A stretch of DNA of 12,585 nucleotides from Armatimonadota bacterium (GTDB lineage Bacteria; Armatimonadota; Armatimonadia; Armatimonadales; Armatimonadaceae): NCBI GenBank assembly GCA_043754515.1, contig JAYUUO010000125.1:1-12585 (forward strand), given 5' to 3'. The translations under genes and the position numbers were made by a program. Below the pieces are notes generated by a model. The model had not been told where the DNA came from. It saw nothing but the letters and a program-made list of their open reading frames with translations, and searched no databases. The number at the start of each line of letters is the position of its first letter. Position 1 is the first letter of the stretch. This document shows positions 1 through 12,585 of this stretch, one piece after another.

Positions 1-2622
1 TAGCCAGCGCGTGACACCGGGTACCGACACGATCGCCGGGATGCCCATCTCACGGGCGACAATCGCGGAGTGCGAGAGCAAGCTACCCCGCTCGACCAAC
101 AATGCCGACGCGGACGGGAACAGGAGAATCCAGCCGGGATCGGTGCGCTCGGCGACGAGAATGGTGCCGGGCGGGAGAGTCGCGCCGCGCGGATCGGTGA
201 TCACGCGAACCGGCCCACGTACAATTCCGGGACAGCACGCGATCCCTCGCCGCTCTGTGCCGTCGCCGACGGGTGGTTCGTCCGCCTCGCTCTCGCCCGT
301 GAAGTCGTTGCCGACATATACGATGCCGCGCGTCTCGCACCGGTCGGCGGGCGCGGGTTGCGTTCGGAACCGGGCAAAATCGGTTTTACGCAGGGCGGCA
401 AGTCCGCGTAGGTCGGTACAGGTGGCCGTCCCCCCGACAAAGCCCATTATCTCCGCCACTTCCAGATAGAAAACATCGCGGGGGTCGTCGAGCAGATCAA
501 GCGCGTGGAAGCGGCGGCCCAGTTCTACGAAAATGCGCCGCACCCGCCCGAAAACGCGGGTTCGCTCGAAGCGCAGGTTCTCACGGTCTCGAACGTGGCG
601 GCGGGCGTTGGTAAGCACGCGGTTATAGATCGCCCGCTGGATCGGCTTGCCGCGTAGGACGGCGGCGACGGCGCGTTCGGCTTCCCGCCGGGGATCGTGT
701 CCGGCGGCGCGGGGCGGGCGCGGCGGCTGCGCGGCGGTGTTCGCGACGGCACGCAGGAGCGGGAGCGGGTCGTCGGTCAGCGTCGCGGACTCGAGCTTGA
801 GTTCCTCCAAACACCGGTCGCCGAACTTCGCCAGGTAGTCGCTGAGCGCGGCGTCGAGCGGCGGCGCGGCGGCCAGCACAAAACGGCGGGCGGAGGAGGC
901 GGGAAGATCGCGAAGGGCGGCGATCAACTCGCTTTCGCGCGGCGAGGCGTTCACTATCGCCGCCATCGCCTGAACCCGTTGCGCCGGCTCCGCGCTGATG
1001 ATGCCCCCTTCACCGCTCACCAGATCGTTGTGGACGCTAGCGAGCTCCGGTCCGCACCACTTCTCCGACAGGCGACGCAACACACCGTGGAAGATCATAG
1101 CGAAGAAATCGTTGACCAGTGGTGCGTCCCACTGCGTCAATAGCTGCTTTTCAAGTTCCTGGTAATGAGCCGCGAGTTCGTCGGGGCGCATCCGCTCAAG
1201 GTCGCCGATTGACGGCGCGAGCGCGACGTTTAACCGCTTGTAAAACGTTGTGATCTGCTCCGGGAGTCGGCGGTGCTGGGCGAACAGACTGAGCACGGAG
1301 CGGGCGAGATCCAACGCGTCACGGCGGCGGTCGGCGGCGGTCGGCACGACGGACTTGCCGACGATCTCCTCCGGCAATCCCCTCTTGACGCCCATCATCT
1401 GCTCCATGAATGTCCGGTTAATCGCGTAGCCGGGGAGCAGCGCGAGCAATCGGTACCAGTTCGGTAGGTTATAGTAGACCCGCCCCCGGATCAGCCCAAG
1501 TAGATTGCCGAACATCCGATCCTCGCCCGCGATCTTGCGCGGAGGCACGGATAACAGATGGCAGAACTCGCGGTAGACATGTTCGTAGGCGTTGCGCGCG
1601 AACGTAAATGTGAGCGGGGTAGTGACGCCGTTGTAGCTCTCGGCGATGTTGCTGTTATCCCAGACATTGAGCGCGGCGTCCGGGTCGGCGCGGCCCGCGA
1701 GCGTCGTGATCGGGCGGGACTGGAGCAGGTAAAAGACGCCGTTTTCCCGCGCCCATTCGATATCCTGTGGCCGTCCCGCCCACGCCTCGGCGCGTCGTGC
1801 CAATTCCGCGACTCGCGCCGCTTCGGGGTCGGACAGCACGGGAGCGGTGGCAATCGCGGTGGAGACCGGCTCGGCGCGAATACCCTCGCCAACTCCGGGT
1901 GCGGCGACGTGCTGGATAGTTTTATCGGTGATCGCCCGTTCCAGGACGGAGCCGTCCGCGCCGACTTTCCACGTGTCGGCGTCCACGTCCCCGCCGACTA
2001 ACGCGGTGCCCAGGCCATACACCGCCGCGACAACCGCGACCGCGCGGCGTCCGGTCACCGGGTCCGCGCTGAACGCGACCCCGGCACATTCGGCGTCCAC
2101 CATGCGCTGGATGAGCACGGCAGGGGGGCACGGCAGTGGCGGCAGGTTCCGTTCGCGCCGGTATGCCAGTATTCGCTCGCTAAACCCGGATCGCCACACG
2201 CAGGCGACGCGGGCGAGAACGTCGGCGGGCGGCACCCAGAGGAAGGAGTCGAGTTGTCCGGCGAACGAGTTCCCCGCGCCGTCCTCGTCCACCGCCGACG
2301 ACCGAACCGCGACCGACTCGCCATCCGGACAGAGACGTCTCAAGGCATCGGCGAGTGCCATGTGGATGTCGTCGCCGGGGCAGATATGCGCGAGCAAATC
2401 AGCCAGTAAATTGTCGTCGTCCTCCAAAGCGGCGTGGGAAAGTGCTTCTCGTTGCGCGGTTGCCAGAGAATCATTGAACGCGGCGGGGGCGAGAACACAC
2501 CAGAGCGGAATCGGCAACTCCGAGTCATAAAGACGTGCGAGCGCGGCGGCTTTGCCTCCCATCAGCGCGATGCGCATGGACGGGTCAACGGCGTCTTCCG
2601 GCCAGACGATATAAGAGGGCAT
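1..2622 (-). CDS. PEP/pyruvate-binding (ATP-grasp) protein with C-terminal phosphohistidine swivel domain; rifampin-phosphotransferase-like dikinase architecture; 3' end outside window
   Basis: Manual translation from ATG at 2622 gives MPSYIVWPEDAVDPSMRIALMGGKAAAL, then VAVRSSAVDEDGAGNSFAGQLDSF, QRMV..GVAFSADP, GLGTALVGG and DIEW...LLQSRPIT. In the same frame near the left edge: ILVAERTDPGW...ERGSLLSHSAIVAREMGIPAIV, with the catalytic His codon at 72..70. It is missing from the ORF track, consistent with no in-frame stop before the edge. Confidence 0.93.
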   Translation of the reverse strand, partial: MPSYIVWPEDAVDPSMRIALMGGKAAALARLYDSELPIPLWCVLAPAAFNDSLATAQREALSHAALEDDDNLLADLLAHICPGDDIHMALADALRRLCPDGESVAVRSSAVDEDGAGNSFAGQLDSFLWVPPADVLARVACVWRSGFSERILAYRRERNLPPLPCPPAVLIQRMVDAECAGVAFSADPVTGRRAVAVVAAVYGLGTALVGGDVDADTWKVGADGSVLERAITDKTIQHVAAPGVGEGIRAEPVSTAIATAPVLSDPEAARVAELARRAEAWAGRPQDIEWARENGVFYLLQSRPITTLAGRADPDAALNVWDNSNIAESYNGVTTPLTFTFARNAYEHVYREFCHLLSVPPRKIAGEDRMFGNLLGLIRGRVYYNLPNWYRLLALLPGYAINRTFMEQMMGVKRGLPEEIVGKSVVPTAADRRRDALDLARSVLSLFAQHRRLPEQITTFYKRLNVALAPSIGDLERMRPDELAAHYQELEKQLLTQWDAPLVNDFFAMIFHGVLRRLSEKWCGPELASVHNDLVSGEGGIISAEPAQRVQAMAAIVNASPRESELIAALRDLPASSARRFVLAAAPPLDAALSDYLAKFGDRCLEELKLESATLTDDPLPLLRAVANTAAQPPRPPRAAGHDPRREAERAVAAVLRGKPIQRAIYNRVLTNARRHVRDRENLRFERTRVFGRVRRIFVELGRRFHALDLLDDPRDVFYLEVAEIMGFVGGTATCTDLRGLAALRKTDFARFRTQPAPADRCETRGIVYVGNDFTGESEADEPPVGDGTERRGIACCPGIVRGPVRVITDPRGATLPPGTILVAERTDPGWILLFPSASALLVERGSLLSHSAIVAREMGIPAIVSVPGVTRWL

Positions 2623-2666
2623 ACTCCAGAGCACCTTTCCGAGCCGGTAAGCAAACGAGTAGCAAC

Positions 2667-2711
2667 AAAAAAAGCGACTGTCGTACGCTCCTAATGAGCC
2701 ACGCAGTCGCC
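2667..2711 (-). terminator. Intrinsic terminator in the 5' leader of the dikinase gene
   Basis: Minus strand reads GCGACTG-CGT-gGCTC-attag-GAGC-gt-ACG-a-CAGTCGC followed by T7, ending about 45 nt upstream of the ATG at 2622. Confidence 0.75.
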
Positions 2712-2766
2712 GGGTTTCTCACGCTTCGTTAGCTCTTTCAGCAGACTCCAGCGCGATTACGTATAT

Positions 2767-2775
2767 ATAGTACCA
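2767..2775 (-). promoter_or_regulatory. Putative extended -10 promoter (TGgTACTAT) for the dikinase leader
   Basis: TGn plus TACTAT in an AT-rich patch. The same TGG-TAnnAT form occurs upstream of pdhA. Confidence 0.5.
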
Positions 2776-2936
2776 TGTTCTGCGGAGCCGTCGCCAGCCA
2801 GACAAAAACACATAGTACCTCAGGGCGCGGGCGCATCCTGTTGAAACGATCTCACACCCCACTGAATTAAGATGCTGAGTGTTGTCTTATCATCAATATA
2901 TAGATAATTGCGTCTCACAATAGTGTCTATAAATTA

Positions 2937-3875
2937 TTAGTGCAGAAGTCGCGGGATGGCACCGAGACTCAGATACATCACCAGCGTCCAGACTCCCGCG
3001 ACTGGCTCGAACCACATTGCCGTCTGCTTCGTAGGAGAACGGGCGAAGCGAACAGCGACCACTACCGCAACCGTAACCAGGCAAATTAGGAGGGAGGCCA
3101 CCGGCAACAGGAAGTGAATCTCGCGAGCCGCGAGCAGTGCCAATACGGCGGTGCCGCAGATCGCCCCGACCCAGACTGTGGGCGCAACAACGGTGCCCCA
3201 CAGCGACGTATATGTCTCAACCCCCTCCTCCTCCGACTCAGCGGCGCGAAGTTTGCGCCCGACCTCGATCACGATGCCGTTCATGAAACTCACGAGCAGG
3301 AACCAGATTAGACCGCGCGGCGCGTCCACGCCCGCCACGCGCCAGTCGCACGCCGTCGCGTACAGGTCAATGAGCGGCATGATCGCCATGTGCGAAACCA
3401 TGTACACGACCGGGTGCCTTTTAAGCCATACCGGGACGAAAAACTCCTTCGTCATCAGCGCGAGCCACGCCCAGACCAGGAGCAGATATGGGAGTAGCGC
3501 GGGCGCGAGGGCGAAGGCGAGCGCGAACTGTATCACGCCCGCGAACGCGGCGACGACGCCGAGTTCACTCAGCCGCACCAGACCGCGCGGCACGGCGCGA
3601 TAAGGACGCCAGCGCGAATCCTCTGCGAAGTCTTTGAACTCGTCGGCGATCCGCAACAGCAGGAAAAACAGCAGTGCGGTCACGAACGACACGGCGATGT
3701 TGGCCCACGGCGGGAGGTGTCCCTGTCCGCGTAGTAGCGACGAGAACGACACGGCGGAGAACGAGAACGCGGCGACCAGCGGGGCGTGGGCAACGAGCGG
3801 AAACCGCTCGCGCTGGTAAACCCACCAGCGGGCGGCGCCGGTCGGCATCGGGAGCGCGGCGACGGTTTCATTCAT
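2937..3875 (-). CDS. UbiA prenyltransferase-superfamily membrane protein (divergent subfamily)
   Basis: 312 aa with many hydrophobic helices and a UbiA-type first Asp-rich motif, RIADEFKDFAEDSRWRPYRAVPRG. It overlaps the upstream gene by 8 bp (ATGAATGA). Confidence 0.82.
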   Translation of the reverse strand: MNETVAALPMPTGAARWWVYQRERFPLVAHAPLVAAFSFSAVSFSSLLRGQGHLPPWANIAVSFVTALLFFLLLRIADEFKDFAEDSRWRPYRAVPRGLVRLSELGVVAAFAGVIQFALAFALAPALLPYLLLVWAWLALMTKEFFVPVWLKRHPVVYMVSHMAIMPLIDLYATACDWRVAGVDAPRGLIWFLLVSFMNGIVIEVGRKLRAAESEEEGVETYTSLWGTVVAPTVWVGAICGTAVLALLAAREIHFLLPVASLLICLVTVAVVVAVRFARSPTKQTAMWFEPVAGVWTLVMYLSLGAIPRLLH

Positions 3876-5220
3876 TCGGCGGGCTGTTCTCCGGCGTCAT
3901 TGACACGTCGGTTGTCGGTGCCTTGGCCCGACTACGGGCGAGCCGCTGGTGGGCGCGGGCGAAATCACCCGCCGCGAGCGCACCGATGATAGATAGCTCT
4001 CCCGCCAGTGACAGAGCGGCGCAGACTTCCGCGAGTGCCCGTGCGTTCCCGCTCCCGGCGAGACCGAGAATGTCCAGACATGCCTTCTGCGTCGGCAGTC
4101 CCGTGCCCCCGCCGACGGTGCCGACGACCAGATTCGGCAACGTGACGGAGGCGTACAGATCGTCTGGCCCGCCCTCCCCCGTCGCCGGGCGCGTCTCGAA
4201 GCGTGTCACCCCGACCGCCGACTCCGCGATGCAGGCGGCATCCTGCCCGCAGGCGATATACAGCGCGGTCAGCCCGTTTGCGTAATGCCCCTGAATCCCG
4301 ATCGTGCCGCTCATCACGCCGCCTAACGCCGACATGCGCCAGTACTGCTCCATCGCGAGCGCGGTCGTATATAGCCGCTTCGCGATCAACCTGCCAGATA
4401 TGACGATTTCAGCCGTTACCTTCTTGCCACGCACGGACAAAAAAGAGCGGGCACTCGCCTTTTTATCGCCGGACAGGTTTGCTTCGACGAAGTGATACAG
4501 CGGAACAACAGGCGACTCGGCGACGATGTATTCGCAGATCGCGGCGGTAGCGATGGTGACCATGTTCTGCCCAGATGCGTCGCCGGTCGAGTACTCGAAG
4601 TCGAGGTAGACGTGGTTACCCTCCACGGTCACCTTCATATCGTGCAGTTTGCCGTGCCGGGTGGTTGACTCGGCTTTCTCGCGGAACGTTCCGACACTGG
4701 TTAGTGCCCACGCGACGAACTGCCCCACTTCGCGCAGGTTATTAAAGGCGAAGCCGGGAGCGCGGCTCATCCCCTCGCTGAGCAGGAGGGCGGCGCAACC
4801 GCCGGACTCAGTAATCAGTTGCGCCCCGCGATGGTACGACGCGACTAACGCCGCCTCGGTCGTAGCAAGCGGAACGCGAAAATCCCCGTTCGCGAACAGC
4901 CCGTTGACGCGCAATGGGCCGACCAGACCGACTGGGAGTTGCACGGTGCCGAGGAAGTTTTCGATGTTGCCCCCATACGCCGCGAACGATCCGGGGGGCG
5001 CGTCCCCCGTCAGCGTTGCCCGCGCCGTTCGGGATATTTCACTATCCCCAATGGTAGCCCAGCAATGATCCATGCCGCGAGCCGTTATCCGCGCCGACCC
5101 CGAGAAGCGGGGCGGCGGATCATCCGTGCGAGGAGCGAGGCGACCTAGCCATGCCTCCTGCCCGTGTTCCCGAAGCAGTTCCTCCATGTAGTGCGTGATC
5201 GAACGGTAATGCGTGGACAA
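3868..5220 (-). CDS. hmgA: Class I hydroxymethylglutaryl-CoA reductase (NADPH-type)
   Basis: Motifs ENFLG, PLATTEAALVAS, GDASGQNMV, NLSGDKK, CGQDAA, GTVGGGT and C-terminal AHQRL. The start is placed at the in-frame TTG at 5220 because GGAGG (5232..5228) lies 7 nt upstream and a TATAAT sits inside the longer 5289 ORF. This gives 450 aa. Confidence 0.92.
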   Translation of the reverse strand: MSTHYRSITHYMEELLREHGQEAWLGRLAPRTDDPPPRFSGSARITARGMDHCWATIGDSEISRTARATLTGDAPPGSFAAYGGNIENFLGTVQLPVGLVGPLRVNGLFANGDFRVPLATTEAALVASYHRGAQLITESGGCAALLLSEGMSRAPGFAFNNLREVGQFVAWALTSVGTFREKAESTTRHGKLHDMKVTVEGNHVYLDFEYSTGDASGQNMVTIATAAICEYIVAESPVVPLYHFVEANLSGDKKASARSFLSVRGKKVTAEIVISGRLIAKRLYTTALAMEQYWRMSALGGVMSGTIGIQGHYANGLTALYIACGQDAACIAESAVGVTRFETRPATGEGGPDDLYASVTLPNLVVGTVGGGTGLPTQKACLDILGLAGSGNARALAEVCAALSLAGELSIIGALAAGDFARAHQRLARSRAKAPTTDVSMTPENSPPNE

Positions 5221-5247
5221 CGAGAAACCTCCGGTGCTTTCGTTATA

Positions 5248-5253
5248 ATTATA
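5248..5253 (-). promoter_or_regulatory. Putative -10 box (TATAAT) for the HMG-CoA reductase/UbiA operon
   Basis: Perfect TATAAT 15 nt upstream of the GGAGG. It is part of the palindrome TATAATTATA (5244..5253). No clear -35 box. Confidence 0.45.
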
Positions 5254-5304
5254 CTGTCGAACGCGCTTTCTTGCTTGCCTTGCGGACATCCCCGCATAGC
5301 ATCG

Positions 5305-5487
5305 CGCGACTTCACCCCCTAACCTTTATACTGCCGCAAGCACGGAGAGGGAAAAACCTTGCTCGCGGGATCAGGCGGCGGTACTTCTCGTCGCTTCATC
5401 GTCAGACGGGAAATCCTCCTCCATAAACAAGCAAAGTTCCCCCTCTCCGCGCTTGCGGCAGACAGAGGTATGGGGGGTGAAGTCGCG
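5305..5487. repeat. Imperfect inverted-repeat doublet (about 58-bp arms), REP/MITE-like
   Basis: 5305..5363 aligns with the reverse complement of 5430..5487. The outer 15 bp are perfect (CGCGACTTCACCCCC / GGGGGTGAAGTCGCG) and both arms share the core CTGCCGCAAGCRCGGAGAGGG. Confidence 0.85.
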
Positions 5488-5517
5488 GGCAGGGCTAAAA
5501 GTCGCGCGCGGTAAAAC

Positions 5518-5922
5518 TTAGTGTCCGGAGACGTTTCCGCCCGTGGCGACCTTCGCCAGCGCGGACGATGCCAGTGCCCGCCGCCGCGCCCGCTGAATCT
5601 GGACCGGGCGCAGGTCGGCGCAGATGACCTGCGGATGAAGCCCCATCCGGCTTGCGGCGTTAACGACTCGCGGCACGAAGTCGAACTCCAGCCAATCCGC
5701 GTACCGCTCATCCGTGTCGTTCGCGTCGAGGCTGGCGAGCAGGTTCTCGCCCGCTGCCCGCTTTGCCGCCGGGTAGACGAAGCAACGCGCCCCGGTTCCG
5801 ATGCTCCACTCGATCACGGCGCGGTCCGAGCCAGGGACACCCGACAAGCCGTGCCAGTCTTTGGCCAGTTTCTCGAACGCGTCCGGGTCGAACCGGGGCA
5901 GGTTTTGTAGCCGTTTTTCCAT
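5518..5922 (-). CDS. Hypothetical protein, 134 aa
   Basis: ATG start 20 nt after the pdhC stop, same strand, protein-like composition. No family recognised. Confidence 0.7.
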   Translation of the reverse strand: MEKRLQNLPRFDPDAFEKLAKDWHGLSGVPGSDRAVIEWSIGTGARCFVYPAAKRAAGENLLASLDANDTDERYADWLEFDFVPRVVNAASRMGLHPQVICADLRPVQIQRARRRALASSALAKVATGGNVSGH

Positions 5923-5942
5923 AAGTGCTTCGCGCTTTCGCC

Positions 5943-7427
5943 CTAGCCGGTGACTATCTGGAGAGGATTTTCAATCACACGCTTCAGCGATTGCAGGAAC
6001 GTCGCGCCCGCGACGCCGTCCATGACCCGGTGATCGGCGCAGAGCGTCACTTTCATGCGCTTGCGCGGCACGATCTGTCCGTCCACCACGGCGGCGACGT
6101 CCCGCACCGAGGCGATAGCCAGAATAGCGCCCTCACCCGGATTGATGATCGCCGCGAAGCTCTCCACGTCGAACTGACCCAGGTTCGAAATCGTGAACGT
6201 CCCGCCGGTGTACTCATCCGGCTTGAGTTTGTTTTCACGCGCCTTCTCGATCAGCGGACGGGTTTCTTTCGCGATGGCCCGGAGCGACTTGTTCTCGCAA
6301 CCCTTGACCACGGGAACAATCAGGCCGTCCTCAATGGAGACCGCGATGCCGATATTAACCGACTTGCGGACGACGCGCTTGTTGTCCGAGAACGCCGAGT
6401 TGATGACCGGGTTTTCGACAAGGGCGACGGCGCACGCCTTGGTTATCATGTCGGTGACGGACACTTTACCTGCGTTCGGGGCGGCGGATTTATTGAGCTG
6501 TTCGCGGAAGGCGAGGAACGCCTCCATATCGAGCTCGGCGGTCACGTAGAAGTGCGGAATCGTTGATTTGGACTCCGCGAGCCGCCGGGCAATAGTGCGG
6601 CGCATCGCGTTGTACTCGACAAAGGTATCGCCCTCTCCCAGCGCGAGTGGCTTCACGGGTTCTGATTGCGCGGCGGGCGTGGTAGCGGCGGGGGCGAGCG
6701 TTGCCGCTGGTCGCGCCGCTTCCGAAGATCCGGTGGATTTTAGCGCGGCTTCGACATCGGCTTTCATCACCGCTCCGTTCTCGCCCGACCCGGAGATCGC
6801 CGCGAGGTCCAATTTATTCGCGCTAGCCATTGCTTTGGCGAGGGGGGAGGCTTTTACCGCAGTGCCACCGACGGATTCGACCATAACCGGCTCGCCGATG
6901 GTGCTCGCCGACCCACCCAGATTTTCGGGCAGTGCTCCGATGTAGGAGTTGTACGGCTGAAATTTGCCGCCGCTGACCACGGCGTACGAGGGGGACGAGA
7001 CCGGCGCGGTGACAACTGGCTTGGGCGCGACGCCGTTGGTATTGCCGGTTTGCGGCGCGGGTTCCATCCTGACCGGGATGACTCCCTCACCTGTCGTGGT
7101 TTCCGGATCCTCCTCGGGCTTCGGCACGTCAATCTTCGCGATAGGTGCCGCGCTTGTCGTCGGAGCCGTCGCGGGGACCTGCGCCGCGCTCGCTACCGCT
7201 CCGACTACCCCGATCACCGTACCGACCGGCACCATGTCACCGGCCTGCACGTGAATAGCGGTCAGGAATCCGTCCCCGTCCGACTCGATCTCGACGTTCG
7301 ACTTGTCAGTCTCCAGTTCCGCGATCGCCTCGCCGGACTTCACCGCGTCCCCGACATTCTTCAGCCACTGGACGATGCGTCCCTCTTCCATCGCGTCGCC
7401 CATCTTGGGCAAAATAATATCAGCCAT
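5943..7427 (-). CDS. pdhC: Pyruvate dehydrogenase E2, dihydrolipoamide acetyltransferase
   Basis: Single lipoyl domain (ELETDKS), peripheral-subunit-binding domain (KASPLAKAMA...GSGENGAVMKADV) and catalytic GGTFTISNLG and ADHRVMDG. Confidence 0.95.
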   Translation of the reverse strand: MADIILPKMGDAMEEGRIVQWLKNVGDAVKSGEAIAELETDKSNVEIESDGDGFLTAIHVQAGDMVPVGTVIGVVGAVASAAQVPATAPTTSAAPIAKIDVPKPEEDPETTTGEGVIPVRMEPAPQTGNTNGVAPKPVVTAPVSSPSYAVVSGGKFQPYNSYIGALPENLGGSASTIGEPVMVESVGGTAVKASPLAKAMASANKLDLAAISGSGENGAVMKADVEAALKSTGSSEAARPAATLAPAATTPAAQSEPVKPLALGEGDTFVEYNAMRRTIARRLAESKSTIPHFYVTAELDMEAFLAFREQLNKSAAPNAGKVSVTDMITKACAVALVENPVINSAFSDNKRVVRKSVNIGIAVSIEDGLIVPVVKGCENKSLRAIAKETRPLIEKARENKLKPDEYTGGTFTISNLGQFDVESFAAIINPGEGAILAIASVRDVAAVVDGQIVPRKRMKVTLCADHRVMDGVAGATFLQSLKRVIENPLQIVTG

Positions 7428-7437
7428 TTGTTTTCTT

Positions 7438-8454
7438 CTATTTCCCGCCCAGCGTTCGCTTCACCGCGACGACAATATCGTCCTCGGTGGGGGTCGCCAG
7501 ATTCTCCAAAGCCTTACTATATGGCATCGGGACGAACGCGCCCGTCACCCGTTGCACCGGCGCATCCAGATCATAAAATGCCCGCTCCGCGATCTGCGCC
7601 GATACTTCCGCCGCCGCGCCATACAATCCCCATTGCTCCTGCACGACAACCGCGCGGTGCGTCTTCTTGATACTCGCGAGCGGCGTCGCCATATCGAGCG
7701 GCAACAGACAGCGCAGGTCAATCACTTCCGCGTAGATGCCGTCCTGCGCGAGCCGGTTCGCCGCTTTGAGCGATTCGATCACCATGCGACTGTACGCGAT
7801 AATGGTGACGTCCCGGCCTTCGCGGATGACGTTCGCTTTGCCGAGTGGCACCATGTACTCGGGATCTTCGGGCACCTCGGACAGGCCTTCCTGGATCTTC
7901 TCCAGGTTCTCGGTCTTCTCGAAATACAATTTCAGCGTTTCGAGGAAGATCACCGGGTTCTCATCGCGCACCGCCGACTTCAGCAGGCCCTTCGCGTCGC
8001 CGGGCGTCGCGGGCAGGACCACCTTTAGGCCGGGGCAGTGCGCGAACAAGACTTCAATCGCCTGCGAGTGTTGCGCCGACAACTGGTTGCCGACGCCAGA
8101 GGGGCCACGGATTACCATCGGCACCTTGAACTGCCCGCCGAACATGTACCGGATCTTCGCCGCGTGCTGGGCGATCTGGTCGTACGCGGGGAGCGCGAAG
8201 TCCATGCGCATCATCTCGCAGATCGGGCGTAGTCCCGCCATCGCCGCGCCGATGCCGAGTCCGATGATGCCGACCTCGGAAATGGGCGTATCTACAACCC
8301 GTTTCGCGCCGTACTCCTCCAAGAACCCCTTAGTGACCTGAAGGGTACCGAGGTACTGCCCGACCTCCTCGCCGATAATAAAGACGGACTCGTCCCGATT
8401 CATTTCTTCCCGGAGCGCGAGCGTAAGCGCGTCCGCATATCGCATTTTTGCCAT
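7438..8454 (-). CDS. pdhB: Pyruvate dehydrogenase E1 beta subunit
   Basis: GEEVGQY, RVVDTPISE, GLRPICEMM, SAQHSQ, EVIDLR and DLDAPVQRV. Confidence 0.95.
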   Translation of the reverse strand: MAKMRYADALTLALREEMNRDESVFIIGEEVGQYLGTLQVTKGFLEEYGAKRVVDTPISEVGIIGLGIGAAMAGLRPICEMMRMDFALPAYDQIAQHAAKIRYMFGGQFKVPMVIRGPSGVGNQLSAQHSQAIEVLFAHCPGLKVVLPATPGDAKGLLKSAVRDENPVIFLETLKLYFEKTENLEKIQEGLSEVPEDPEYMVPLGKANVIREGRDVTIIAYSRMVIESLKAANRLAQDGIYAEVIDLRCLLPLDMATPLASIKKTHRAVVVQEQWGLYGAAAEVSAQIAERAFYDLDAPVQRVTGAFVPMPYSKALENLATPTEDDIVVAVKRTLGGK

Positions 8455-8469
8455 AATTGTTTCCCGAGA

Positions 8470-9522
8470 CTAAGCGTAAACGTCTTTCAGAAGTTCGTCG
8501 GGCGTCGGGTTCGCCGAGTCGTCGCTGAACTTCAGCGCGGCCTCGGCGGCGGCGACCGCTTCGTGGTGGATCTTGTCGCGCATCTCCGCGGTTAGCACGC
8601 CGGAGGCGAACATCTTCTGCTCGCACAGCATGATCGGGTCGCGCGTGGACTTTATCTGCTCCACTTCCTCTTTTGAACGGTACGTCACCTGTGTCACCTG
8701 CGTGTCCGCCGCGCCGTGCCCGTGGTAGCGGTACGTCTTCATCTCCAGAAACACCGGGCGCGGATTCGTCCGCATCGAATCAACAATGCGGGACACCGTC
8801 TCATGCACTGCGAAGATGTCTTGCCCGTCAATCACGTGGTACTCCATCGCATACGACTCGACACGGGAGGCGAGATCGGGATTGGCGTGGGAGCGTTCGA
8901 TGCTGGTACCCATCGCGTAGCCGTTGTTTTCGAGCACGAACAGCACCGGCACCTTGAAGAGTTGCGCCATGTTCAGGGACTCGTGGAAGCCGCCCTGGTT
9001 CATCGAGCCGTCGCCGAAGAAGCACGCGCAGACCTGACTGCCGCCCGAGTACTTGATCTTCCATCCAAGACCGAGCGCGATCGGGACATTGCCACCGACG
9101 ATCCCATAGCCGCCGTAAAAGCCGAGTTTGGCGTCGCAGATGTGCATCGAGCCGCCCTTACCTTTGGAGCAACCCGTGATCTTGCCGCAGATCTCCGCCA
9201 TAACCTGGCCGGGAGGCGAACCGGCTGCGAGCGCGTAAGCGTGGTCTCGGTAGTGGCCGATGAACGAGTCACCGTTCCGGACGTCCATCGCCCCGATGAT
9301 GCCGACCGCGATAGCCTCTTCGCCGGAATAAAGGTGCAGGTAGCCGCCGATCCCGTGTGTCCCCTGCCGGAAAGCGCGGTCACATAACTCCTCGAATTCG
9401 CGTATATGTACCATCTGCTCGTAAAACCGCAGATACGAAGTCATGTCGAGATTGCCCGCTAGGGCAGGGTCGGCGAGCGTGGAGACGGGTGCTTCCAGAA
9501 CCGACGGGGCTATTTTTGCCAT
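8470..9522 (-). CDS. pdhA: Pyruvate dehydrogenase E1 alpha subunit (TPP-dependent)
   Basis: GYLHLYSGEEA, YRDH, GCSKGKGGSMH, TPP motif FFGDG...ENN and TYRYHGH. Confidence 0.93.
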   Translation of the reverse strand: MAKIAPSVLEAPVSTLADPALAGNLDMTSYLRFYEQMVHIREFEELCDRAFRQGTHGIGGYLHLYSGEEAIAVGIIGAMDVRNGDSFIGHYRDHAYALAAGSPPGQVMAEICGKITGCSKGKGGSMHICDAKLGFYGGYGIVGGNVPIALGLGWKIKYSGGSQVCACFFGDGSMNQGGFHESLNMAQLFKVPVLFVLENNGYAMGTSIERSHANPDLASRVESYAMEYHVIDGQDIFAVHETVSRIVDSMRTNPRPVFLEMKTYRYHGHGAADTQVTQVTYRSKEEVEQIKSTRDPIMLCEQKMFASGVLTAEMRDKIHHEAVAAAEAALKFSDDSANPTPDELLKDVYA

Positions 9523-9644
9523 TACGTGTGCTATTTCCTACCTAGTAAAATCGTGGCGGGGTGCCGGTGTCGCCGCGCCACGAACGCATCGGGACGACGC
9601 GACGGACGGCTCTTTTCCGCGACGCGGAACCGCGAACCGTCGGC

Positions 9645-9653
9645 ATTATACCA
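9645..9653 (-). promoter_or_regulatory. Extended -10 promoter (TGgTATAAT) of the pdh operon
   Basis: Perfect TGn-TATAAT about 120 nt upstream of the pdhA ATG in otherwise GC-rich intergenic DNA. Confidence 0.7.
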
Positions 9654-9733
9654 GAAACCCGCCCGAATGGACAGCGCGAAAACACAACATCGCGGCGGCA
9701 GGATTTTCCGACCGGCACGGCGAATCAACCGAC

Positions 9734-10216
9734 ATGTACCGAGTGGGAATCCTGACCGTTTCGGATCGGTGTTACGCGGGGGAACGCGAGGATGTTTCCG
9801 GCCCCGCGATAGTGACCTGTCTCCCCGCGAGCGACTATGAGGTCGTCTTTCATTGCACCGTCCCCGATGACGAAGGCGAGATAGCGGATCAGCTAATCGC
9901 GATGAGCGACGGCGGATGCGACTTGGTGCTCACGACTGGCGGCACCGGCTTCGCCCCGCGCGACGTCACACCGGAAGCCACCGTCTCCGTGTTAGATAAG
10001 AACGCGCCCGGCATCGCCGAACTGCTCCGAGCCGAAGGGTTGCGCACGGTGACGACCGCCGCGCTGGGGCGAGGAGTCGCGGGCATTCACGAGGCAACCC
10101 TGATCGTCAATCTTCCGGGTAGCCCCACGGGGGCACGGGACGGAATGAAGGTGCTGTTGCCTCTGCTACCCCACGCGCTGTCCCTGGTCGCGGGAGGAAG
10201 GGGAGGACATGACTGA
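9734..10216 (+). CDS. mog: MogA/MoaB-family molybdopterin adenylyltransferase
   Basis: MYRVGILTVSD, DVSGP, VPDD, TTGGTGFAPRDVTPEAT and NLPGSP. The start is set at ATG 9734 (160 aa), because the upstream extension in the ORF track overlaps pdhA and its promoter. Confidence 0.92.
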   Translation: MYRVGILTVSDRCYAGEREDVSGPAIVTCLPASDYEVVFHCTVPDDEGEIADQLIAMSDGGCDLVLTTGGTGFAPRDVTPEATVSVLDKNAPGIAELLRAEGLRTVTTAALGRGVAGIHEATLIVNLPGSPTGARDGMKVLLPLLPHALSLVAGGRGGHD

Positions 10217-11018
10217 GACATTATCCGAACCGCTGTCCTTCGACCGTGTCGCGACCGAGTACGAGCGCACGCGTCCCCTCCCGCCGAAGGTGGCACTTTC
10301 CGTAGTGAAGTTCATTTCGGGCGTCGGGGGCGATGGTTGGATCCTGGACGCCGGTTGCGGCACGGGCCGGTTTACCCGCCCCCTCGCCGCGCGGCACGAG
10401 CGAACGGTCGGGGTGGACGTGTCGGAGGAGATGCTGGGCGAGATGCGCCGCATTCTGTCGGAGACGGGCGCGCCGCAACCGAATCTCGTTCCCGCCGATT
10501 TGCGGGGTCTCCCCTTCCCCGACGCGCACTTCACCGCCGTGCTCGCCGTTCATGTGCTCCATCTGATCGCCGAGTGGCGCGACGCCATCCGCGAGATGGA
10601 GCGCGTGACGGTGCCAGGTGGCATCCTGATGCTCGGCTACGAACACCGCTCGACGTCCGCCGTGCGTGACTTCTATATGGCGGAGGGGCGTCGGCGTGAT
10701 CTATTGCCCGCCCACCCCGGTGCGCGGAACACCGAAACTGACATGCCCTTCATCAAAGCGTGCTTCGGGGCAACGGCGCATGAGACCATCACCCGCCCGG
10801 AGTGGCAGTGGACACACAGGGCATCGGTTGGCACGATGCTGACCGACTTGGACGCGCGCCTTTATTCATCGCAGTGGCAGATCCCAGCGTCCGCGCACGA
10901 GGCGATTATGATCGCGACGCGGGAGAATGCACTTAATCGGTTCGGTCCCGCCTACGAGGGCGCGCATGAATCGCTGGAAACGCGATTCGTGCTCCATCTG
11001 GTGCGCAAAAAAAGCTAG
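10209..11018 (+). CDS. Class I SAM-dependent methyltransferase
   Basis: SFDRVATEY, motif I ILDAGCGTG, GVDVS, ADLRGLPFPDAHF and RVTVPGG. It overlaps mog by 8 bp and has GGAGG upstream. Confidence 0.9.
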   Translation: MTETLSEPLSFDRVATEYERTRPLPPKVALSVVKFISGVGGDGWILDAGCGTGRFTRPLAARHERTVGVDVSEEMLGEMRRILSETGAPQPNLVPADLRGLPFPDAHFTAVLAVHVLHLIAEWRDAIREMERVTVPGGILMLGYEHRSTSAVRDFYMAEGRRRDLLPAHPGARNTETDMPFIKACFGATAHETITRPEWQWTHRASVGTMLTDLDARLYSSQWQIPASAHEAIMIATRENALNRFGPAYEGAHESLETRFVLHLVRKKS

Positions 11019-11314
11019 ACGTGCTTTGGGGAGGGCTTAGCGGGCTTTTTGCCCCCTGGTTTCTTTGCGTCCACGCCGTATTTCATCAGGGCGACCTTAT
11101 CCTTATCACTCATCTTGCCGAACGCTGGCTTGCAACCGCCGCAACAGAAGTAGAACGTCTTGCCTCTATACACCGAGGAGTTCTTGATGTCGGGCTTCGC
11201 GACCTTCTCCTTCAGGATCGGGCAGGTGGCACCGCTCTCGGGGCGAGCGAACGCGGAGCCGGTCGCGGCGAGTACGAACAGCGCGGCGGAGAGGACGGCG
11301 AGAGACTGTTTCAT
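11015..11314 (-). CDS. Secreted YHS/TRASH-like Cys-rich metal-binding protein
   Basis: Signal peptide MKQSLAVLSAALFVLAATGSAFA, then CPI...YRGKTFYFCCGGCKPAF and a Lys/Pro-rich tail. Its stop overlaps the methyltransferase stop at CTAG. Confidence 0.8.
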   Translation of the reverse strand: MKQSLAVLSAALFVLAATGSAFARPESGATCPILKEKVAKPDIKNSSVYRGKTFYFCCGGCKPAFGKMSDKDKVALMKYGVDAKKPGGKKPAKPSPKHV

Positions 11315-12165
11315 AGATATAAGTGCGTGTACAGAAATATGTTACAATCGGTATCATGAGCCGATTGACTAAAATAATTCTGACCGATGAGCAACGCGCC
11401 GCACTGGAAAAAGGCTTCAAGTTTGGCAAAGTTCACGGGTTCCGCCAGCGATGCCAAATGCTTTTACTTAAGGCACAGAAAAAGACTTCTAAAGAGATCG
11501 GTGAGCAGTTAGGCTATTGTCTCGTGACAGTAAACCATTGGGTCACGCGGTATCAGAACGAGGGTATTGACGGTTTACACATCAAGGCGGGCAGGGGTAG
11601 GCACAGCATTTTGCAAGAGGAAACGGACTTGCCTGCGGTGCGTCTCGCCGTGCAAGCCAACCGACAACGCCTGAGCCTCGCGCAGGATGCTTTACAGGAG
11701 GAACTCGGCAAGCAGTTTAGTCGCATGACCTTGAAGCGGTTCCTTAAAAAAACGGTTGCCGATTCAAGCGCATACGCAGGCGAGTAAGCAAAGAACCCGA
11801 CCCCGAAGAGTATGCCTATAAGGTGGCGAGTTTAGCACGCATAGAAGAAAGTGCGGAAGCGGGTCAGATAGACGTTTTTTATGGGGACGAGAGCGGCGTC
11901 TGTCTCATCCCGTGCGTCCCTTCGGGATGGCAATTCGGGGACGAGGATTTATTCATCCCTAGCACCAGCGGTAAGGCGGTGAATTGTTTCGCTCTGCTGT
12001 CGCGAGACAACCGATGCTTCTTTCGTACCACCGAGCAGACGATCAACGCGGCTTTGATACGCGATTACCTGGATGATTTTAGTCGGCATTTGGAACGCCC
12101 GACGGTCGTGGTACTGGACAACGCACCCGTGCATCAGAGTGAGGTACGCAAGTGCCGGGCCGCGT

Positions 12166-12192
12166 CGAAAATCGCGGCGATTTGTCGAGCGT
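12166..12192. repeat. 27-bp in-frame palindromic insertion with GCGT direct repeat
   Basis: GCGT at 12162..12165 and 12189..12192 flanks the hairpin TCGA-AAATCG-cgg-CGATTT-g-TCGA. Removing it restores KCRAAWEAKG. Confidence 0.75.
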
Positions 12193-12229
12193 GGGAGGCG
12201 AAGGGGATGTACGTGTTCTTTCTGCCCCC

Positions 12230-12254
12230 TCGGTATTTTGCGGAGCAAAAACCT
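12230..12254. repeat. 25-bp frameshifting palindromic insertion
   Basis: Hairpin GGT-a-TTTTGC-gga-GCAAAA-ACC. Removing it restores the IS630 motif FLPPYSPQLN and the reading frame. Confidence 0.8.
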
Positions 12255-12303
12255 GTACTCGCCGCAACTGAACATCGCGGAGATACTGTGGCGCAAGCTC
12301 AAG

Positions 12304-12333
12304 ACAGAGAAATGCCTTGAGGGCATTTTCTTG
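12304..12333. repeat. 30-bp in-frame palindromic insertion
   Basis: Hairpin AGA-g-AAATGCC-ttgag-GGCATTT-TCT. Removing it restores WRKLKYEWL. Confidence 0.75.
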
Positions 12334-12479
12334 TATGAGTGGTTGCAACCGGGTGATTACAAAGAAAAATCACTGCTAGGTTACCGCGTTTGGGAAGCAC
12401 TCGCGGCAGTCGGGCACGATCTGAAAATCGCCTTCAAACCGTTCAATGCGGAATGTAAACTAAATTAGAACAGGTACTT

Positions 12480-12545
12480 AAATTCCCATTCGGCGTCTTC
12501 TACGTCGGAAGGATAGCGTTTCTTGATTTTTAATGTGGTTTCCAC
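12480..12545 (-). pseudogene. N-terminal fragment (22 codons) of an IS5-family transposase, cut off by the IS630 end
   Basis: GTG at 12545 gives (M)ETTLKIKKRYPSDVEDAEWEF, matching the RYPSD-x-x-D-x-EW N-terminal signature of IS5-family (DUF4096-type) transposases. The frame runs straight into the IS630 TA. Confidence 0.78.
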
Positions 12546-12549
12546 ATTA
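12531..12549. promoter_or_regulatory. Perfect 8-bp inverted repeat covering the IS5 transposase start codon
   Basis: TAATGTGG-ttt-CCACATTA. The GTG at 12545..12543 lies in one arm. Confidence 0.55.
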
Positions 12550-12585
12550 TTTGATACACTATTTGACTAGAACTAGTTCATAACA

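Follow-up and report, generated by a model that had tools for sequence, protein, structure and literature searches.

Three bulged hairpins within an IS630 element

The window, that is, the whole 12,585-nucleotide stretch analysed here, is contig C125 of genome G000 (5.13 Mb in 313 contigs). Judged from their translations, the genes in positions 1-11314 appear ordinary and read as a PEP-utilising enzyme, a prenyltransferase, an HMG-CoA-reductase-like protein, pyruvate dehydrogenase subunits and a molybdopterin protein; Pfam returned a methyltransferase and a weak YHS match in this part. An IS630-family insertion sequence follows (Table 1), for which no plasmid match was found. The last 98 bases (12488-12585) recur unchanged at the beginning of contigs C160 and C131 and are probably the end of another repeated element.

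Table 1. Coordinates of the IS630 element and its three inserts in the window
Feature	Position	Strand	Remarks
IS630-family insertion sequence, host of the inserts	~11320..12480	+	TA at both ends; Pfam HTH_23/32 and DDE_3
IS630 ORF1, helix-turn-helix part	11356..11787	+	Pfam
IS630 ORF2, DDE part	11823..12468	+	Reads through insert 1; frameshifted at insert 2
Insert 1, subtype II	12165..12191	+	Hairpin core 12165-12188 with 3 more bases; 27 bp net, frame kept
Insert 2, subtype I	12230..12255	-	Net 25 bp; source of the frameshift
Insert 3, subtype I	12304..12333	-	Net 30 bp, in frame; largest subfamily

An A-rich stretch near 11746-11753 of ORF1 is presumably the site of a programmed frameshift of the IS630 type. 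ORF2 contains three inserted segments, which an earlier, sequence-only reading had described as bulged hairpins; folding confirmed all three. Removal of 12166-12192, 12230-12254 and 12304-12333 yields an open 188-codon DDE frame, restoring the IS630 text that the same reading had quoted (KCRAAWEAKG, FLPPYSPQLN and WRKLKYEWL). This frame is colinear with that of L001, an IS630 in an Armatimonadaceae MAG and the sole relative found among GTDB genomes. L001 is 62.5% identical to the host along its length and lacks all three inserts, leaving alignment gaps of 27, 25 and 30 bases; the empty sites that had been proposed as a check are thus found in a homologue. The frameshift caused by insert 2 falls upstream of the catalytic Glu motif. 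For insert 1, the CG preceding the core occurs again after it, and the register is ambiguous (12162-12188 to 12166-12192) because of the flanking GCGT; the registers of inserts 2 and 3 slide by one base each.

Logan contigs from four of four runs, belonging to four studies of glacier, ice and sediment metagenomes, carry the inserts gaplessly over the stretches that they cover. The X5 contig spans precisely 11320-12480 and the X7 contig 11341-12480, each with two differences and no gap, whereas the X10 contig covers 11691-12273, that is, inserts 1 and 2, and the X1 contig, from a run that may be the source sample, covers 10800-12327. Because contigs of all four runs carry them, the three inserts are not an assembly artefact, a possibility that the sequence-only reading had raised against itself. 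None of the indels and joints listed for the run contigs removes an insert, an observation made at the level of contigs rather than raw reads and uninformative on rare excision. Contig depth is raised over the IS630 in X5 and X7, although depth there does not equal copy number. The triple-insert contigs of these two runs (X5 record 19 and X7 record 28) continue for 77 and 175 bases, respectively, that are unlike the window, hinting that the element may sit at other places in those populations.

A genome-wide family with one fold

Searches of G000 by sequence and by structure showed that the inserts are multi-copy. By sequence alone, insert 1 gave 21 matches (up to five mismatches were allowed, and some matches are partial or due to chance), insert 2 gave seven and insert 3 gave eight, with paired changes in both arms. 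The structural descriptor taken from the sequence-only reading gave 106 matches, compared with one and seven in two Markov controls. In an unbiased scan for all bulged hairpins, 600 were found in G000 and 451 in the control. Most classes lay near the control level; hairpins with three A/T pairs next to the bulge numbered 108, compared with two in an order-5 Markov control (both strands counted), indicating that the inserts are not chance hairpins. The curated census comprises 123 loci on 65 of the 313 contigs: 36 insert-3-like, 31 insert-1-like (subtype II), 12 insert-2-like, 18 other subtype I and 26 leftover strict matches, a few of which are due to chance.

The shared fold consists of a 3-bp outer stem, one bulged base, an AA or TT tract, a GC-rich inner stem and, usually, a loop of three to five bases. 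When copies are written so that the bulge falls in the 3′ arm, subtype I has the order CA, three outer pairs, stem-loop, bulge and G, and subtype II has TC...GA followed by G. In all 81 distinct cores, the AA/TT dinucleotide keeps the same distance from the bulge, a feature that the search itself required. A 34-row alignment across families shows double-sided changes at nine of nine stem pairs (71 cells, compared with 16.8 after shuffling); its figure of 99% paired is circular, since the rows were chosen by pairing. Within the insert-3 family, 20 rows contain ten double changes, compared with 1.9. The census thus contains several sequence subfamilies of one fold with compensatory changes, although pairing partly decided which loci entered it, and the pairing and G-T figures are inflated as a result.

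It had been proposed that the three inserts differ in sequence but share an architecture. The shared architecture is upheld by the excess of the A/T-tract class. The description can be refined in one respect: inserts 1 and 3 align column for column and are therefore related rather than unrelated look-alikes. CRISPR repeat arrays on five contigs of G000 bear no sequence relation to the elements.

Distribution among genomes

The exact insert-3 pattern occurs in two of 301 genomes of the phylum, G000 (18 occurrences) and G270 (four), which belongs to the same genus. A covariance model, with 150 candidates scored per genome of the order, gave 73 matches in G000, eight in G270 and one to three weak matches in 18 of the other 39 genomes. 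Seven of the weak matches in other genera were inspected; they look like ordinary coding DNA and were not counted. The class is abundant only in G000 and is confined to one genus among the genomes searched, so a comparison of gene presence and absence could point to the enzyme.

A pattern scan of metagenomes returned 82 stretches, of which 21 have complementary inner arms and approximately ten look like true members, the insert-3 subfamily among them as in G270; the rest were treated as chance. Scans of viral contigs with the insert-1 and insert-3 patterns found nothing. Bulged-hairpin inserts of different sequence are also present, at other sites, in related IS630s: L001 has its own of 20 and 24 nt (~720-810), and L026 and L044 have one of 29 nt. 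The kind is therefore wider than the subfamilies described here. At one IS630-like site, L008 and G000 (C74:11276) are both filled, by different insert-3 variants. The sole insert-2-like copy found in G270 (C186:14050, L168) sits inside a broken Y1 transposase gene.

Hosts, nesting and clustering

Most copies lie in prophages, in one another or in transposase genes, the latter from a wide range of IS families. Pfam analysis of 145 frames from element-bearing regions identified portal, integrase, serine recombinase, Gam, methylase and ParB genes and a PRTRC-type island, together with transposases whose Pfam labels we read as IS701-, IS5-, IS256- and IS3-type. Several further copies lie in genes that we take, from a motif, to be RHS-like. 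Of 11 insert-3-family loci in G270 and the metagenome contigs, where the scan took in 39 of the 67 frames listed, ten have a transposase-family Pfam match at the insertion site or next to it, and three pattern matches of greater divergence have none. Five related copies lie in an intergenic repeat, eight counterparts of which are empty. The elements occur in both orientations within host genes, including the present IS630 gene.

Elements are also nested in each other and form tandem arrays (C172, C225 and C143). Nested hosts provide empty sites in C172, C143, C50 and C284, and filled sites elsewhere can be compared with empty ones in C156 and C163 and, with identical flanks, in C263 and C221. 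Ten contigs totalling 205 kb hold 54 of the 128 loci in the census as it stood before five were removed (see below). Of the 123 retained, 37 lie within 300 bp of another, compared with 1.7 for random placement and 12.6 (maximum 27) for within-contig shuffling, and the triple insertion in the window is therefore one example of a general clustering. IS copies with a common insert-3 junction end several contigs (C184, C119 and C150; C291 and C71), which indicates that these hosts multiplied after receiving the insert.

Site choice, junctions and loop inversion

The site of insert 1 is also filled in a diverged IS630 of runs X10 and X7 (records 15 and 29, aligned without gaps) and is empty in relatives of that element (C149, C262 and L026). 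Seven copies of insert 2 were found with no more than three mismatches, four at the same IS630 site and three at TnpB/IS605-type 3′ ends, the hosts of the latter being TnpB-type elements by our own reading of the sequence. Loci in C123, C281 and C276 had been considered as IscB omega-RNA loci; no RRXRR match was obtained, in a search with no positive control, and the gene reads as TnpB. An eighth copy, in C262 (L006), is partly deleted: an internal 10-base deletion leaves 15 bases and restores the frame, with a stop just upstream.

Insert 2 occupies the same codon in seven of 11 IS630 rows, which fall into three lineages 52-61% identical, and these copies differ at zero to three of 26 bases. 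The nearest relative of the window's IS630 (72% identity) is empty at this site, and in C256 and C217 synonymous differences lie immediately beside the insert. None of 200 bootstrap trees unites the filled rows as a single origin would. Repeated insertion at this site is likely but falls short of proof, because four of the seven inner branches are open, the starred branches do not force out one origin and shuffled labels perform equally.

The site of insert 3 is unfilled in ten other IS630 rows. Among 41 independent insert-3-like hosts (31 from G000), a purine is found at −3 in 32, T at −1 in 21 and A at +1 in 21, and N-Y-N-G occupies +2 to +5 in 28 (background 0.156, p = 5e-14). These flanking bases belong to the target, as empty IS630s show them. 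In other subtype-I families, N-Y-N-G occurs in four of 14 (p = 0.16, not significant); the downstream motif is weaker in subtype II, where it occurs in 11 of 25 hosts and, without array contigs, in five of 16 (p = 0.09). As the motif is not significant in those subtype-I families or, once array contigs are set aside, in subtype II, one shared enzyme is unproven.

No target duplication was detected for subtype I (n = 56), and a 1-bp duplication model failed (12 observed, 8.3 expected). In 12 of 25 subtype-II hosts, the two bases that precede the core are found again behind its G (3.0 expected; 0 of 20,000 permutations); without array contigs, this holds for six of 16 (2.4 expected, p = 0.008). 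On our reading, elements would be joined at a constant position at the 3′ end of the bulged arm, and the opposite junction would shift by −1 to +1 base. At some sites (C221 compared with C263), replacement of target bases fits, and so does simple insertion into a variant host.

Eight pairs of copies have identical ends and arms with the loop inverted, and five of these pairs require a multi-base inversion. Among 1,161 stem cells, G-T pairs number 16 and A-C pairs 15, in a set in which 98 of the 129 loci are structure-selected seeds. The inverted loops, the equality of G-T and A-C and the presence of both orientations speak for DNA, as a hairpin or cruciform, rather than for an RNA with a set polarity. 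Loops in both orientations point to a process at the DNA level, although loop inversion could also follow insertion, by template switching.

Search for a linked enzyme

The sequence-only reading had suggested looking for a linked HUH nuclease, recombinase or reverse transcriptase (RT). No enzyme linked to the elements was found in G000, an absence that weighs little because the genome is estimated to be 92.7% complete and repeats often remain unassembled. Four weak or partial Y1 matches were obtained. No intact Y1/RAYT gene is flanked by elements, and one census hairpin lies within a Y1 remnant in C244. Y1 genes are present in five of five relatives tested, four of which lack the element class in number. 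The analogy with bulged hairpins bound by HUH enzymes thus survives as a lead, with Y1 remnants in G000 and Y1 genes equally in relatives without elements. Integron integrase (TIGR02249) scored below the cut-off in five of five genomes. G000 has two RT genes. From their motifs, we take the one at C197:29000-30700 to be the RT of an apparent diversity-generating retroelement (DGR) and that at C263:16900-18900 to be retron-like; neither adjoins a census element.

Comparison with known small elements

No account of this element family was found in a search of the open-access literature. The closest likeness is to the small dispersed repeats SDR1-8 of Nostoc and its relatives, which Elhai et al. 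are said to have described in 2008. Like SDRs as we understand them, the present elements are approximately 20-30 bp long, non-coding, dispersed, restricted to a lineage, nested and divided into several families sharing a fold. Homologues here have empty sites; different sequences adopt one fold with compensatory changes, among members partly chosen by pairing; and copies are nested in their own kind and in other mobile DNA (C143, C50, C284, C172 and C225). Unlike Nostoc SDRs, they belong to a different phylum and are hosted mainly by IS and prophage DNA. We know of no enzyme that has been shown to move SDRs, and to our knowledge the question of how 20-30-bp DNA moves has been open since they were described. 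In 200 of the 355 kb of Nostoc plasmid pNPUN01, 21- and 25-nt inserts that split HIP1 begin by repeating its central AT and are probably of SDR5 type. These inserts (L113-L115) mostly fold as two mini-hairpins, whereas the present elements form one bulged hairpin with an A/T tract, and no sequence likeness was seen. PMC4390886 places the insertion point of SDR5 between bases three and four of HIP1, and further passages on SDRs appear in PMC2884548. The HIP1 site of SDR5 also reads N then R-Y-N-G, like the insert-3 target.

REP/REPIN sequences share with the present elements the form of a 20-40-bp imperfect palindrome, are non-autonomous and are thought to be moved by a hairpin-binding HUH enzyme, as stated in PMC3733652 and PMC3116915. 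By contrast, the present elements lie mostly inside mobile genes rather than in extragenic DNA, are single hairpins rather than doublets and were not found to flank a RAYT gene. The GTAG or CGTC tag of REP/REPINs is not fixed here and lies near an end in eight of 55 subtype-I and five of 25 subtype-II copies. The IS608 hairpin is bulged like those of the present elements, which are much shorter than Rickettsia palindromic elements and also shorter than integron attC sites. As in IS200/IS605 elements (PMC7290912), insertion takes place beside a short motif, and for subtype I no duplication was detected. Unlike those elements, there is one hairpin rather than one per end, the junctions lie 1-3 bases from the foot of the stem, subtype II often duplicates 1-2 bp and no intact TnpA is linked. 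A search of G000 for orphan halves, as a hairpin-per-end architecture would produce, gave only short nested composites and no recognised paired long element. Rickettsia palindromic elements likewise place palindromic DNA in coding sequence, sometimes in frame (PMC3733652), yet here frameshifting members are common and it is dispensable DNA, not housekeeping genes, that hosts the elements.

The elements are a variant, with its own fold, of known but unexplained very small mobile DNA; REPINs and SDRs are still treated as unexplained in PMC3116915.

Possible mechanisms of movement

These elements are very probably a genuine mobile family. The family postulated by the sequence-only reading is borne out by dispersed copies, empty sites, compensatory changes, nesting and arrays; its recognition by structure is suggested by the covariation. 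The best reading, by analogy, is that they behave like cyanobacterial SDRs but with a different fold. On balance, we regard them as non-autonomous DNA elements of 25-30 bp that are probably moved as folded DNA by a trans-acting enzyme. Such an enzyme would recognise the folded DNA rather than its sequence, lift or copy the hairpin as single-stranded DNA and join it at a short favoured target through a cut that is almost blunt or staggered by 1-2 bases; for the insert-3 subfamily, this target would read roughly R-N-T then S-Y-N-G. Copies would persist where insertion is cheap (IS elements, prophages and repeats) and hitchhike when those move. An HUH/Y1-type single-strand transposase is the most likely single class of enzyme, though only a tentative candidate; a recombinase or nuclease encoded by a phage or island has a similar likelihood. 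Against an enzyme of the Y1 type, a 1-2-bp duplication is not made by canonical Y1 enzymes (PMC7290912), and Y1 matches are weak or partial in G000 yet present in relatives without elements. It is possible, if doubtful, that the elements represent a shape-defined superfamily (one hairpin with a bulge beside AA/TT) moved by an undescribed single-hairpin DNA integrase, with short pseudo-palindromic targets and a symmetric DNA intermediate that allows the loop to flip. If true, this would be a transposition system in which one hairpin is the whole cargo.

Alternatively, the hairpins might pass through RNA: a transcript would be copied by an RT of the retron, intron or DGR type, and the copy captured at DNA breaks or targets. 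G000 does contain two RT genes, and a pair of junctions of which one is fixed and the other varies would be in keeping with primed reverse transcription; the RTs, however, read as retron-like and DGR and lie apart from census elements, G-T is no commoner than A-C, both loop orientations are present, and Rfam gave no match at gathering score in the window and five loci. We therefore consider an RNA route unlikely. More improbable still is that no dedicated enzyme exists and that rare hairpins born of replication error were passed from one IS copy to another by gene conversion and carried along by IS elements and phages. The strong local clustering, the copies that clearly multiplied with their host IS and the position of common sites in conserved motifs would all be expected on that account. 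It is opposed by near-identical inserts in unrelated hosts (IS630 and TnpB ends), by the synonymous differences directly flanking insert 2, by the existence of a target consensus and by the fact that the inserts are not copied from neighbouring DNA.

The sequence-only reading had offered, as an alternative, a mechanism that disables transposases by hairpin insertion. A cell that inactivates transposases and prophages in this way would explain why hosts are so strongly biased to mobile DNA, why prophage and island contigs are densest in copies and why insert 2 frameshifts IS630s. As a dedicated system it finds little favour here and is a decidedly remote prospect: the 27- and 30-bp inserts, two of the three in the window, preserve the frame, open transposase frames cross the 30-mer in L010 and L040, copies also lie in prophages, the intergenic repeat and each other, and the bias needs no targeting, as purifying selection in core genes accounts for it. 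That the inserts are small introns or recoding signals, removed or bypassed at the RNA level while the transposase still works, is the least credible account. It would fit the recurrence of the same insert at the same codon in diverged IS630s, but both orientations occur relative to host genes, even within one gene, and many hosts are non-coding or contain further stops (C262 and C171).

For the question of how DNA this small can move, G000 offers a dense and testable case, with more than 100 copies of several subfamilies of one fold in a cold-habitat bacterium. Its empty sites, target consensus, 2-bp repeats and flipped loops narrow down the possible chemistry and indicate which substrates to use in an assay. 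The inserts break transposase and prophage genes and will confuse annotation.

Further hairpin modules

Orphan halves in C143, C265 and C138 consist of insert-3 arms enclosing 60-70 bases of further small hairpins, from which it follows that more, smaller families of modules exist and enter the loop. Five matches at first assigned to subtype II proved to be the hairpin of a REP-like host repeat and were removed, reducing the census from 128 to 123. A REP-like intergenic repeat, present in at least 13 copies (C263, C221, C186, C150, C140, C51, C113, C241, C256 and C281), is itself composite, with optional hairpin modules. Another repeat (C59, C156, C248, C159 and C305) contains a 22-base hairpin, outside the census, that is present in some copies and absent from others.
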